NCBI GenBank assembly: GCA_029940695.1
Contig: JAPYUP010000001.1
Location: 75,385 to 139,384, forward strand
Reading direction: 5' to 3'
DNA: 64,000 bases
Origin: Candidatus Thalassarchaeaceae archaeon
Lineage (GTDB): Archaea; Thermoplasmatota; Poseidoniia; Poseidoniales; Thalassarchaeaceae
Shown in pieces: positions 49,710 to 55,976 of the stretch (positions are counted from its first letter, which is position 1; each line of letters begins with the position of its first letter). The notes under the pieces were generated by a model. That model saw only the letters and a list, made by a program, of their open reading frames with translations. It was not told the origin of the DNA and searched no databases. The translations under genes were made by a program, and so were the position numbers.

Positions 49710-50693
49710 ATGGAGGACCCAATAGGGGCGGTAGTCAGCTCGCTCGCCTCTTCACTAGGCATTGCTGAGGTGACGATACAACTCATTATCGGCACCGTTG
49801 GGCTGGTGCTGCTCGGAATAGGCTTCCACCGGAGCGCGGAATCATATGCAGATCGCGCCGCCATCGCCGGATGGCCCTTGATTGGCCTGTTCTTCTACCT
49901 CTACTCTGATCACTATGTGGAGATCGCGGACCCGGTTCTGATTCTCATGACGGCTGGGGCGCTACCTGCTGGTATTGGAGTGTCACTATGGGAAGCGAAG
50001 GGCGAGACCGTTCACTCAGGAACCTTGCATTGGCTAAGGGGGTGTGTGGTGTGGTCAATGCTGCCATACTATGTCATTTACAACATTCCCCAACTCAATA
50101 TGGGCTTCGTGTACGTTACTGCACTGAGTGCAGGGTGGATGTTGGAGTTCTCTGGAATAGGGGGCTATGAGGTAGGGGGCATGATGATAGAAAGGTTTGG
50201 CGAGGCTCCCATTCCCGTCTCGGATTGGGCAGGTAACAGATGGATCCTCAGCGAACCCCTTGGGGAGATTGGTTTCTTCGTCTCGATGAACAATAGTGAG
50301 GGTGTGACCGTAGTCGCCTTCATCTTAGCGTGCTCTGCCTTGCAGTCCATGGCCGTATTCATTGGGGCGATTGTGGCTCTAAGCTCTGTTCACTGGAAGA
50401 GAAGGGTGCGAGCGCTACTCATCGCACTGCCCACTATCCACGTCCTAAACGTTTTCAGGAACGCGGGGATAGTTTGGCTTACAGACACTTACCCGAGTTG
50501 GTCCTTCTTCGGGATTGGGATGTTTGACTTTACCCACAGCTATGCCGCCAAGTTCGCTAGCCTATTCGCAATGTTTCTGATGGCAATCGCTCTGTTTGAC
50601 CTGCTGCCAGAGCTCCACAGACACATAATGAAAGTGTTGAACCCATTGATGGTTGCTTTGGGATCCAAACCAGCTTCATCAGACCATCCGTGA
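49710..50693 (+). CDS. Archaeosortase/exosortase-family polytopic membrane protein
   Basis: Multiple TM helices. LACSALQS matches the exosortase ACSG(L/I)RS Cys motif. HVLNVFRNAG supplies the conserved Asn/Arg. 327 aa. Confidence 0.5.
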   Translation: MEDPIGAVVSSLASSLGIAEVTIQLIIGTVGLVLLGIGFHRSAESYADRAAIAGWPLIGLFFYLYSDHYVEIADPVLILMTAGALPAGIGVSLWEAKGETVHSGTLHWLRGCVVWSMLPYYVIYNIPQLNMGFVYVTALSAGWMLEFSGIGGYEVGGMMIERFGEAPIPVSDWAGNRWILSEPLGEIGFFVSMNNSEGVTVVAFILACSALQSMAVFIGAIVALSSVHWKRRVRALLIALPTIHVLNVFRNAGIVWLTDTYPSWSFFGIGMFDFTHSYAAKFASLFAMFLMAIALFDLLPELHRHIMKVLNPLMVALGSKPASSDHP

Positions 50694-53600
50694 TCTGATT
50701 CTCTCGTATAGCTTGCCAGTCAGCGGCATGTCATGCTCCCAAGCGAATTCCTTCATCACCCGCACGGCCTCCTTCTCGAGGTCGGAATCACCCACGAAAT
50801 CTGTGATTTCTATCGTGTCTTTCCTCGTGTTTGCCTTGAAAGCAGCGATTGGCTCCTCCTTGTGAAACACGAGGTAGGCTGAGCCGTAGCCGAACCGCTC
50901 CCTGAGCACACTCCCAAAGTAGTGAATCAGCGGGTCTGAAGGTGGAATGACAAGGTCCCTCGATCTAGAGATGGTGTCTAGGCCCTCGAGCATGTCCTGG
51001 CGCCCCCAGCAGATGTCCTGCAGGTCATCGACTAGGAACCCCTTGATCAGTGTACCATCCTCCTCGAACTCGTGCATCACGTCACTGATTTCCTCTGGGG
51101 AGAACGAAGAACCTGCCAAACGCTCTAATTGCTTCAGCGTGATGACAGGGTAGTTTTGGACTAGTTCCCTGAGATAGTCTCTCTTGATTCCCCACAAGTC
51201 AGCGTTCGATATCGGTTCGACGGTCTTGAAACCGCCCCTGTAGTCTTGAATCAGGTGACCGCTCCTGACTAGGGGCGATACGAGTTTGCGGAAGTTGGAT
51301 CTACTCATGGCATTGCGTTCCATGTAGACATCGGGGTCATTGTGCTCTCTGAAGAACTGTAGAATCTCCTCATCCTCGGCCTCGATAGGTACGTTCCTGA
51401 TGGTTAGCAGATTCTGGAAGTGTCGATATCGAGCCCAAACCAGGTGTCCTCTGAGGTTGGAGCCCTGGTGCAACTGGTGCGCAGCGACCATCGAACTCAG
51501 GTTGACTCTGAACATCTCACAACGGCCCCTTAGGGAGAAGTCGTCACGAAGCTCGCTGGTGTTCTCCAATGCTATTGTCTCGTTTTCCCACCTGCTATCC
51601 TGATGTAGCGAATGGTGAAGGAATAGCATTCTATTGACTTGCTTCCTTGTTCTAGGCGCAACCACACCGCCCCTGATATACCTCTCACCATCACCCATCG
51701 AGACGAAACCGAGATTGGAGAGGATTAACTGGATGTTTTCGTCGCAGTCGTGAACGGGAACGCCGTTGAAGGCATGCAGAACTGAGACATCGACCAAGCG
51801 ATCACGATAGTTCTCGAGCAGCTCCTCGAAAGCGGTCTTGAAATCGTCTAGGTAGGAGTGGGGGATGTTGATGTCCTTGATCTCCAGGTAGTCGTTGACT
51901 ACGAACATCAAGATTCTACCAATTGGATCCACCCCCTTGAAGACCGGGTAGTACCATCCTTGTTTGAGCAGGAGGCGAATCTCCTGGATGAATCTGCTAC
52001 TGAACGGATCGGACTGGGACAGGATTCTCATCTTCCTGTCTTCAGGAAGGGGGGACAGTAGGCGTTCGGCGTCCTCAGGCGATGCGTAGTAGTCCGTTGG
52101 GTCAGGTTGGAGTGTTACAACTCTAGCTATCGTCCCCTCCCTCTCCAGTTCCCTCAGAGCATCGGCCAACTCCTCGACGGGACGGGCCACGAAGAAGCGC
52201 AGGGTATGAATCCGCACCGGTCCGATACGTGCAATGAGATGTGACAAGGCCTCATGGAATGGCAATGGTTCGATTCGGCCGTGCAAGCGTCTGAAAATGG
52301 CCATTGAGCGTTTCCTGTTCGGTATGTCGATGTACTGCTTGACGACTGCCAGTTGACGCTCCAGATTGGAAAGGGCTGACTTAAGGCTCCTCTGGACGTG
52401 GGCGTTTTCCTTCCCCCTAGGATAGTCTGCGAACAACTCCGAGCGTGAAGTTCCCTCCTCGGTTATCTTGTCGAGGAGTTCTTCCTCAAGTGGACCTAGC
52501 CACGGATCGCTCCTTAGCCCGAGAAGCATTGGAAGTTGATTGCCGAGTGTGTAGCCAACGCGGTTGTGTAGAAGCCTGCCGTTGAAGATGTCCGAGTCGT
52601 GCTTGATGTCCTTCCAGTCACGGAATCGGAAGTTTGTCACTCTGTGCAGCAACTCCTCCCTTCGTTGGACGAGGGCAAGATTCCGAATTGCGTCTACGGG
52701 TTCGTCGAAGGTCGCGAATGATTTGTGGAGAATGAGGGTCTGGAGAGTCCGATAGTCGATGACATTGACTTGGCCGCCAGTAATTCGGTACTCATCGACC
52801 CTGAGAATGAACTCGCCCTCGTCAGTCTGAGTGAAGAAGCCGATTGAGGCTAGGTTGCGCATCTCAAGCTCTTGCAACACGGCATCTACTTGAGCTGAGG
52901 GGAAGGGGAGCCTCAAACTGAGGGCCTCGGCGGTTTGCGGGCCCTCAGAGCCAAGCATGTCGAGCAGCTTGAGGCGTAGGCAATCCATTGGGTCAGAGAG
53001 GGATTTCTTCCTCCAGCTGGAGGGATTCCCACCAACAAAAGACATCCCCATCTCGTAGCTCAGGCCCCCGGTGTAGAGCGCTCTCAAGTCATCCATCTCC
53101 GTGGCTCCAGCAATCGCTAAGCATCCCAGCGTCCCATGGACCTCGGCCATTCTCATCGAGAACCACTTGTCATCGATCTTCTCGTGGCCTGTGCCGCGAA
53201 CCTTGGTAATCAGTTCGCGTTCGGCGAGCTCATGAACCCAACCACGAAGCGTATCGTGATCTATTGCCTTTAGCTTCTCGCTGTACAGTGGGTGCGTTAG
53301 CTTGCTCTCCAGACCGCCGCCCATGTCCATGAGTCTGAGGAGTTCGTTGGCATTGGTCGGTACTACAACCTTGGACTGGTAGTAATCCCACAATCGGGCC
53401 TCGTCCAGATCGGTAGCAAGGGAACGCGCGCCGAGAAGGCGACGTAGGATTTCAGGATCTACGTCCTTGATTAAGTAAGCACGTGTCCTGAGAGAGAGCA
53501 AGTCCTCGAATGAGGACATGAAGAGAGTCATTCCCAGTGGAGAGGGTATCTTGACCCTGCGGTGAACGATTCGGACGTCCTCGCTGTCCATCCTGTTGAT

Positions 53601-55976
53601 GAAATCCTTGAGTTGCCCCATGTCCAGATCAATGGTGAGTATCTCGCTCATCGCCTCCCTGACAATCACGGAGTTCTCCATCTGCCTATGCCGATGCAGA
53701 ATCTGCTCGGCCTTCTGCTGGAATTGCTTGGGGCTCACCTCCTCAGCACCTATTCTCCGAGGGTTCAGCATGCTTCTGGATGCGACCTCCCTGAATCGCT
53801 TCGCGAAGAGTTGGGATTCGAGGAGGTACTGCTGCAGTGACTCCCCGCTACTTCTGCCACTGAATACATTGGGGATGGCAGAGATCTCCACCTCGTGGCT
53901 AAGCTTGGCCATGAATCCGTTCTCATCGAAAGAGAGCTCGTGAACGGCGATGTTGTCCCTAGCCGCGAAGCCAGCGAACAGGTATCCAAGCGCGAGATTG
54001 AACGCACGGCCCCTACATGTCGTCACTACGTAGGTTGGTAGTGGTGCGGCGATCTGCTCGACCAGTATCCTGTCCTTTGAGGGTACTTGGAACGTCGTCG
54101 CAGAGTGCTCATCGAGGAACTGTGTTAGTGCGTTGGCAACAGGTCTGTTCAGACCTAGAACGTCGACCAAGAAGGGCGTAATGCTCTTCCCTATTCGAAA
54201 TTGAACGGCGACGAGCGCAAGAAGTTCGAGGACCTCCTTGCTGAGCTCATTGGTGCGACTCATCGCCTCCCCGGTCCAAGATGGGATTGTGGGCCGGTAA
54301 CCCGTGGCGGATGTGACGTTGACTCTGGTTCCAATTACGCTTGAGACACGGTAGGTTGATCCACCCAGCAGGAAGACATCCCCGTTCCTTAGACTCGAAA
54401 CGAAAGAGGATGATAGCTGTCCGACTAGGGTGCCGTCTGATGTGAAGACGAGAAAGTTGTTGTCTGGGGCTATGGTTCCAATGTTGGTATAGTAGATCAT
54501 CTGGGCAAATCCCCTCTTGCCGAAACGGTTCTCCTCCCAGTCTACCCACATCCTCCTCTCGTCATCCAGAAGATCCAGCACCTCGATGTAGTCGTCATAA
54601 GGCAACGACTTGTACGGCCAAGATGCGGAGACTAACTCGTACGCCTCGTCGATGTCCCATTCTCGGATGATCGTCAGGCCGATCAAAAACTGGGCTAATA
54701 CATCCAAGCAGTTCTCTGGGAACTTCAGCAGGTCCATATTCCCTGCTAGGATGCCATTCTGAAGCGCTACTAGCTCGAGGAGGTCATGTGGGGATGTGGG
54801 CAAGAACCGCGCTCTTGGCAGACCATCGACTTGATGTCCGGCTCGGCCAATCCTTTGCACGGCCGTGGCAATCGACCCGGGAGAACCCACCTGAATGACT
54901 AGGTCCACCGAGCCGATGTCAATTCCCAGCTCCAGACTGGATGAGGACACGACGCATCTGAGTAGGCCGTCCTTCAGTTTTTGTTCGACATCCACCCTGA
55001 TTGTCTTGTCCATAGAACCGTGATGTCCCTCTACTCCAAGGAGCCCAGCAACCTTCAGACGCTGGACAAAGGTCTCTGTCATGTTCCTCGTGTTCACGAA
55101 CACGAGTGTCGTAGTATGAGCCTCGACGAGTTCCTTGATGCGCTCGATATTGTGGTCGAGGATCTCCTTGACGGGAATTGATGTGAAGCGAGGAGTTGGA
55201 AGCAGAATATCTAGATCCAGTTCTCTAGATCCAGAGATCTTCGCAATCGAAATTCGTTGAGGCTCCAGATTGCTCTCCCGAGGATCGCTTGCCACGAGAA
55301 ACTCAGCCACCTTATCCAGTGGCTCCATTGTAGCGCTGATGCCGATTCTCTGGACCTCTGATTCAACCACTGAGTCCATCAGTGCTAAGCTGAGTGAGAG
55401 GTGCGTACCCCTCTTTGTTGGGACGAGGGAGTGCATCTCATCTACGATGAGCCATCTCAGGTCATTCAGAAGCGGTCTGAACCTCTTGGATGCCAGCAAC
55501 AGTCCAAGTGATTCGGGAGTAGTAATAAGGATGTGAGGGGGTTTCCTCAGCATCCTCTGCCGCTCCTTCTGAGGGGTGTCCCCTGTCCTGAGCCCGACCT
55601 TGATGTCCTGTGCCCTACTAGGTAAGAATCGCTCCTTGATTTCGTTAAGAGGTCCGATTAAATTCTTCTGTATGTCATTGGCGAGAGCCTTGATTGGAGA
55701 GATGTAGATGCATTGGATTGTGTCGGGAAGGGAGCCGTCCAGTGACCTCCTGACTAGATTGTCAATGATGGAGAGGAAGGCAGTCAGAGTCTTACCAGAG
55801 CCGGTGGGAGAGCATAGCAGTAGGTGTTCGCCGTCCAGAATCTTTGGTATTGCGCTCTTCTGAGGGTCAGTGAAGTCATCGAACTTGTCCAAGAACCAGT
55901 TTCTAACAGGTGGGGAGAGTCGACTGAGGATTTCGTCCCCATCCGATAACTCAGTTACATACGTAATTTCTGGCAT
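50679..55976 (-). CDS. lhr: Lhr-family large ATP-dependent helicase of full bacterial-type length, with a C-terminal extension (1765 aa)
   Basis: N-terminal P..VR.WF..F...T..Q, Walker A SPTGSGKTLTAFL, ISPIKALANDIQKNL, LRTGDTPQKER, ILITTPESL, DEMH, RCVVSSSSLELGIDIGSVDLVIQVGSP, and QRIGRAGHQ. All are Lhr-core hallmarks, followed by about 900 aa of C-terminal domain. Confidence 0.85.
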   Translation of the reverse strand: MPEITYVTELSDGDEILSRLSPPVRNWFLDKFDDFTDPQKSAIPKILDGEHLLLCSPTGSGKTLTAFLSIIDNLVRRSLDGSLPDTIQCIYISPIKALANDIQKNLIGPLNEIKERFLPSRAQDIKVGLRTGDTPQKERQRMLRKPPHILITTPESLGLLLASKRFRPLLNDLRWLIVDEMHSLVPTKRGTHLSLSLALMDSVVESEVQRIGISATMEPLDKVAEFLVASDPRESNLEPQRISIAKISGSRELDLDILLPTPRFTSIPVKEILDHNIERIKELVEAHTTTLVFVNTRNMTETFVQRLKVAGLLGVEGHHGSMDKTIRVDVEQKLKDGLLRCVVSSSSLELGIDIGSVDLVIQVGSPGSIATAVQRIGRAGHQVDGLPRARFLPTSPHDLLELVALQNGILAGNMDLLKFPENCLDVLAQFLIGLTIIREWDIDEAYELVSASWPYKSLPYDDYIEVLDLLDDERRMWVDWEENRFGKRGFAQMIYYTNIGTIAPDNNFLVFTSDGTLVGQLSSSFVSSLRNGDVFLLGGSTYRVSSVIGTRVNVTSATGYRPTIPSWTGEAMSRTNELSKEVLELLALVAVQFRIGKSITPFLVDVLGLNRPVANALTQFLDEHSATTFQVPSKDRILVEQIAAPLPTYVVTTCRGRAFNLALGYLFAGFAARDNIAVHELSFDENGFMAKLSHEVEISAIPNVFSGRSSGESLQQYLLESQLFAKRFREVASRSMLNPRRIGAEEVSPKQFQQKAEQILHRHRQMENSVIVREAMSEILTIDLDMGQLKDFINRMDSEDVRIVHRRVKIPSPLGMTLFMSSFEDLLSLRTRAYLIKDVDPEILRRLLGARSLATDLDEARLWDYYQSKVVVPTNANELLRLMDMGGGLESKLTHPLYSEKLKAIDHDTLRGWVHELAERELITKVRGTGHEKIDDKWFSMRMAEVHGTLGCLAIAGATEMDDLRALYTGGLSYEMGMSFVGGNPSSWRKKSLSDPMDCLRLKLLDMLGSEGPQTAEALSLRLPFPSAQVDAVLQELEMRNLASIGFFTQTDEGEFILRVDEYRITGGQVNVIDYRTLQTLILHKSFATFDEPVDAIRNLALVQRREELLHRVTNFRFRDWKDIKHDSDIFNGRLLHNRVGYTLGNQLPMLLGLRSDPWLGPLEEELLDKITEEGTSRSELFADYPRGKENAHVQRSLKSALSNLERQLAVVKQYIDIPNRKRSMAIFRRLHGRIEPLPFHEALSHLIARIGPVRIHTLRFFVARPVEELADALRELEREGTIARVVTLQPDPTDYYASPEDAERLLSPLPEDRKMRILSQSDPFSSRFIQEIRLLLKQGWYYPVFKGVDPIGRILMFVVNDYLEIKDINIPHSYLDDFKTAFEELLENYRDRLVDVSVLHAFNGVPVHDCDENIQLILSNLGFVSMGDGERYIRGGVVAPRTRKQVNRMLFLHHSLHQDSRWENETIALENTSELRDDFSLRGRCEMFRVNLSSMVAAHQLHQGSNLRGHLVWARYRHFQNLLTIRNVPIEAEDEEILQFFREHNDPDVYMERNAMSRSNFRKLVSPLVRSGHLIQDYRGGFKTVEPISNADLWGIKRDYLRELVQNYPVITLKQLERLAGSSFSPEEISDVMHEFEEDGTLIKGFLVDDLQDICWGRQDMLEGLDTISRSRDLVIPPSDPLIHYFGSVLRERFGYGSAYLVFHKEEPIAAFKANTRKDTIEITDFVGDSDLEKEAVRVMKEFAWEHDMPLTGKLYERIRSRMV

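Follow-up and report, generated by a model that had tools for sequence, protein, structure and literature searches.

A full-length Lhr helicase of marine group II archaea with a bacterial-type C-terminal domain and a duplicated AlkZ-like unit

Lhr proteins are among the most widespread and least understood repair helicases. The characterised homologues of their helicase core (Lhr-core) belong to SF2 and act as ATP-driven 3'-to-5' ssDNA translocases and as DNA or RNA:DNA helicases. Bacterial full-length Lhr (bLhr-HTH) comprises 1507 aa in M. smegmatis (PDB 5V9X/7LHL) and 1538 aa in E. coli; what its large C-terminal domain (CTD) does is debated, the proposals being a tetramerisation scaffold, a cryptic glycosylase, or both. 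For archaea, the initial annotation of the locus described here took Lhr to be usually core-only. This is true in general; however, long C termini were already published for Thermoplasmatota (Hajj et al. 2021, PMC8301817), hence an archaeal context alone is unsurprising within this group. Examples from that study include long aLhr2 proteins with an additional C-terminal HTH_42 domain in Methanomassiliicoccales and Lhr proteins with a long C terminus and "no detected Pfam domain" in Thermoplasmatales. In its Lhr phylogeny, the aLhr2 clade is sister to bLhr-HTH.

The window, meaning the whole stretch of 64,000 nucleotides of archaeal DNA that was analysed, contains one ORF at the lhr locus, encoding a protein of 1765 aa (Table 1). 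Its first 850 residues are a complete Lhr-core. As initially annotated, all motifs lie within this N-terminal part: the four Lhr-core domains exceed their Pfam gathering thresholds, and the helicase motifs I (SPTGSGKT, 56-63), II (DEMH, 179-182), III (SAT, 214-216), and VI (QRIGRAGH, 374-381) are intact by sequence. The best NCBIfam model is PRK13767 with 755 bits over aa 6-847, which is below its cutoff of 849, and PDB entries 5v9x/7lhl are matched by phmmer with E ~1e-110. By homology, the Poseidoniales Lhr would be expected to translocate 3'-to-5' and to unwind in an ATP-dependent manner. About 900 residues follow the core in frame.

Table 1. Features of the Poseidoniales lhr gene and its product; nucleotide positions refer to the window.
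Feature	Residues (aa)	Nucleotides	Strand	Basis or remark
Whole lhr ORF		50679..55976	minus	1765 codons + stop (stop codon 50679-50681), ATG start
Lhr-core helicase	1-850	53427..55976	minus	Pfam, NCBIfam, PDB matches, motifs
RecA1 (DEAD)	36-219	55320-55871	minus	Pfam PF00270
RecA2 (Helicase_C)	277-380	54837-55148	minus	Pfam PF00271
WH_Lhr	409-560	54297-54752	minus	Pfam PF19306
Domain 4 (DEAD_assoc)	631-815	53532-54086	minus	Pfam PF08494
Complete bacterial-type Lhr-CTD (N + most of A)	872-1429	51690-53363	minus	
CTD segment N	872-1060	52797..53363	minus	hhalign, model secondary structure, alignment gap
AlkZ-like unit A	1061-1436	51669..52796	minus	
AlkZ-like unit B	~1437-1765	50682..51668	minus	hhalign, controls, Pfam, dN/dS

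In the ~560 aa that follow the core, every module of the bacterial Lhr-CTD has its homologue: the winged helices (WH) WH2-WH6 and the terminal α/β "barrel". Comparison of a 32-sequence archaeal family profile with a 28-sequence bacterial CTD profile aligns residues 872-1429 collinearly with E. coli Lhr 934-1533, stopping only where bacterial Lhr ends (hhalign 98.3%, E 1.5e-14); reversed or shuffled profiles score 13-19 as opposed to 128 for the real pair. A C-terminal domain of five WH modules and a β-barrel, homologous to the CTDs of M. smegmatis and E. coli Lhr, is present. Segment N contains the equivalents of WH2 and WH3 (hhalign 96.9%, E 1.6e-10, E. coli CTD 64-313), one of which is shorter in marine group II (MGII) than in other family members, as seen from an alignment gap. 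Unit A is the counterpart of bacterial WH4-WH6 and the barrel. It comprises three WH modules together with an α/β "barrel" subdomain with a GNAT-like fold, which includes the C-terminal tail NGVPV...GFVSMGDGERYIRGG. This arrangement of three WH modules with a C-terminal barrel is the fold of the HTH_42/AlkZ-like superfamily, and unit A is matched by Pfam PF06224 with 29.6 bits, above the gathering score of 25.9.

An AlphaFold (AF2) model built from 46 diverse sequences reached a pLDDT of 89.8 and a pTM of 0.80 (an earlier run with 15 close homologues gave a pLDDT of 60.8 and was set aside). Its top three structures in Foldseek are AlkZ (5uuj, E 1.2e-9), AlkX/YcaQ (9zd6, E 9e-8), and the M. smegmatis Lhr-CTD (7lhl, E 3.5e-9 over ~600-645 columns). 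The supposition of the initial annotation that modules of bacterial Lhr lie in the C-terminal region is thus borne out against both the E. coli and the Mycobacterium CTD. Simpler sequence methods do not reach this far. Pfam detects neither WH2_Lhr nor WH3_Lhr in the 1765-aa protein and WH4_Lhr only at a sub-threshold 19.5 bits (cutoff 27), whereas E. coli Lhr matches all three. Searches of the PDB by phmmer/hmmsearch with the CTD, a close-homologue profile, and a diverse unit-A profile yielded only generic winged-helix regulators or the core tail, so that no HMMER-level bridge leads from the CTD to 7lhl or 5uuj. Sub-threshold Pfam matches of the CTD to radical-SAM, DprA_WH, and TrmB were rejected as chance or generic winged-helix similarity.

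Beyond the end of the bacterial protein lies unit B, which comprises ~325 aa and is without counterpart in bacterial Lhr. It is made up of three WH modules plus a β part and is missing the last ~35 residues of unit A. Profile comparison of units A (1072-1399) and B (1442-1754) aligns 301 columns (hhalign 99.83%, E 7.3e-30), with a score of 220 as opposed to 13-19 for shuffled or reversed controls, and identifies unit B as a tandem duplicate of unit A. A blastp self-comparison of the CTD found no repeat; hence, the duplication is visible only with profiles. The additional unit accounts for the excess length over bacterial Lhr. In the Pfam scan of the 1765-aa protein, unit B shows a weak match to WH4_Lhr (1602-1670) and none to PF06224, which matches the orthologous unit B of the relatives P0238 and P0260 with 31.4 and 58.4 bits. 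Of the alternatives raised initially for the C-terminal region, "something new" therefore applies to the extra tandem unit, while the remaining CTD is made of known bacterial modules.

This architecture is widespread among relatives. The homologue search matched 267 clusters, ~38 of which are full-length proteins of 1660-1940 aa; ~30 sequence clusters with a CTD identity of only 15-25% share the collinear N-A-B layout, which is ancient in the lineage. Close homologues are named Thalassarchaeaceae or Poseidoniales, distant family members "Thermoplasmata archaeon", and 469 species genomes contain a close relative. Searching again with the unit-A profile brought up no further taxa, the matches being mostly MGII fragments. 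One relative, P0230 (2344 aa), contains three AlkZ-like modules in the layout N-A-B-A', meaning that the AlkZ-like copy number is two or three in Thermoplasmatota. Values of dN/dS are ~0.05-0.09 in the Lhr-core and all C-terminal segments (0.055-0.079 in unit B), so purifying selection is strong and equal between the core and each CTD segment. A unit that is both duplicated and strongly selected points to module copy number as a tunable feature.

At this locus, a single gene probably encodes a single polypeptide with an N-A-B CTD that serves marine group II, the Poseidoniales within the Thermoplasmatota, as a housekeeping helicase in DNA repair. Herein, the helicase core would track along ssDNA at stalled forks, R-loops, or lesions, and the array of 8-9 winged helices may serve as a platform for binding duplex DNA or lesions and/or for oligomerisation that positions the motor.

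Whether the AlkZ-like units also excise bases was judged from the motif literature for HTH_42 glycosylases and Lhr (PMC9040887, PMC10953399, PMC13303869). The QxD site was placed by the A-to-B profile alignment and manual comparison with YcaQ; since units A and B gave no significant hhalign match to the single YcaQ sequence, and Pfam aligns only profile positions 82-251 of PF06224, with the catalytic motif outside, this mapping is approximate. Within that approximation, neither (H/Q)x(Q/D) nor Hx(S/T)(D/E) is conserved in WH1 of either unit: unit A reads Q1104-R-R1106 in MGII and G-x-A across the wider family, and unit B reads R1477-D-D1479, the family pattern being R-S-(D/E). By extension of the CTD alignment, Asp1536 of E. 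coli corresponds to Arg1432, and the tail that bears this Asp in E. coli is absent from unit B. Asp1536 is, in addition, confined to the enterobacterial rows among 28 bacterial Lhr sequences, most others reading PRGLRLR; such poor conservation even in bacteria advises caution in generalising UDG activity. What is conserved in the CTD is chiefly structural: G, P, L, and W. Glycosylase activity of units A and B is, as far as motifs can tell, unsupported. Because the catalytic residues of HTH_42 glycosylases and of the E. coli Lhr UDG are unconserved, both units are more likely DNA-binding modules, non-catalytic or non-canonically catalytic, than classical glycosylases. The AlkZ-like glycosylase-like module of the initial annotation is thus present in its fold and, for unit A, in its Pfam match, but not in its catalytic residues.

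These residues also weigh against a bifunctional helicase-glycosylase, in which one or both units would be active with non-canonical residues, as UDG-like enzymes of the E. coli Lhr type or as alkylpurine/ICL-unhooking ones of the AlkZ/YcaQ type, and would be delivered to lesions by the helicase. [quoted passage not shown] This cluster resides on a short strand and helix of the first winged helix of unit B, roughly at the YcaQ QxD site, and is conserved to differing degrees (R1477 is found in 27/32 sequences and R1485 in 30/32; position 1479 carries D/E in ~19/31, and position 1481 carries E in 26/32, with Ser in MGII).

The duplicated unit may provide in one chain what bacterial Lhr gains by CTD-CTD oligomerisation. 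In its fullest form, this idea would make the AlkZ-like units an intramolecular pseudo-oligomer that replaces the bacterial CTD-CTD tetramer, with the cluster of unit B as a non-canonical active or lesion-sensing site; a single helicase molecule could then grip both strands or sides of a duplex lesion, e.g. an interstrand cross-link. We regard this as speculative and improbable. If true, the Lhr of Thermoplasmatota would act as a monomer, combining helicase and lesion processing in one self-contained machine that differs mechanistically from bacterial Lhr.

The role as a housekeeping repair helicase is consistent with the genomic context. The neighbours are archaeal, as the initial annotation of a full-length Lhr in an archaeon implied along with the ORF and core domains, and include exosome Rrp4/41/42, proteasome alpha, an archaeal-type GlyRS, the RFC large subunit, and TiaS, besides an archaeosortase-like membrane protein, SIS, and HAD. 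The order GlyRS/RFC-large/Lhr/.../TiaS is kept in MGII genomes that are only 52-61% identical. An anti-phage defence helicase of the Lhr-like DpdJ or BrxHI type, as could be read from PADLOC matches to DpdJ (442 bits, aa 14-588) and BrxHI (243 bits), is very improbable, given that both matches are limited to the generic Lhr-core, that the NCBIfam DpdJ model reaches 36 bits where 800 are required, that zero Dpd or BREX partners accompany the housekeeping neighbours, and that lhr and its synteny are kept across hundreds of MGII species, unlike mobile defence islands.

The gene itself is a real, long, single ORF. The exact 1765-aa protein occurs on nine contigs of NCBI, JGI, and Logan assemblies that are independent of each other, and an uninterrupted ORF of 1762-1765 aa is found in 76/80 related species-representative genomes, all Poseidoniales, while contig ends cut the lhr ORF in the remaining 4/80. 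Together with the low dN/dS, this makes a chimera or a frameshift improbable. The locus is split into two ORFs in two nanopore/pilon assemblies; their breaks fall at different codons (~877 and ~774), each genome being intact at the break of the other, and most likely represent indel errors with no natural split. That the C-terminal 900 aa are translated separately, the long ORF being an assembly product of two adjacent genes, is thus effectively refuted, the many C-terminal database fragments of 500-1100 aa deriving from short contigs and the fusion being kept in distant relatives with 36% core and ~20% CTD identity.

Compared with core-only archaeal Lhr, such as M. thermautotrophicus Lhr and T. 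barophilus aLhr2, the Poseidoniales protein shares the helicase core, but those proteins end at ~850-950 aa, and it runs 915 aa further. Stand-alone AlkZ (5UUJ) and AlkX/YcaQ (9ZD6) comprise ~370-410 aa and rely on a catalytic QxQ/QxD; here, the unit occurs twice, is fused to a helicase, and does not conserve that motif. With the aLhr2 proteins of Hajj et al. (2021), it has in common a Thermoplasmatota Lhr-core and a long C-terminal region bearing PF06224, and both most probably belong to the same protein family. The excerpts of that article considered here do not describe the collinearity with the bacterial CTD or the tandem AlkZ-like units and do not mention Poseidoniales; the papers found likewise make no mention of a duplication of the AlkZ-like module.

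With bacterial Lhr, the protein shares the four-domain Lhr-core with its motifs and the landmarks S-x-x-D-P and NG-PV...GF of the tail. It differs by the second AlkZ-like unit, by a CTD identity of only ~15%, with HMMER profiles of either group failing to reach the other, and by an Arg where E. coli has Asp1536; NCBIfam PRK09751, the equivalog model of E. coli Lhr, matches with 409 bits in the core region only, at a cutoff of 1496. A complete bacterial-type CTD is thus present in an abundant archaeal lineage of the ocean, a finding in support of a CTD that either predates the aLhr2 and bLhr-HTH lineages or was transferred from one of them to the other. Such natural variants are test cases for separating CTD oligomerisation from catalysis. 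Current views are not overturned: with the Poseidoniales Lhr, a known protein gains a variant, not a new kind, and the domain map of the known Lhr family is refined.

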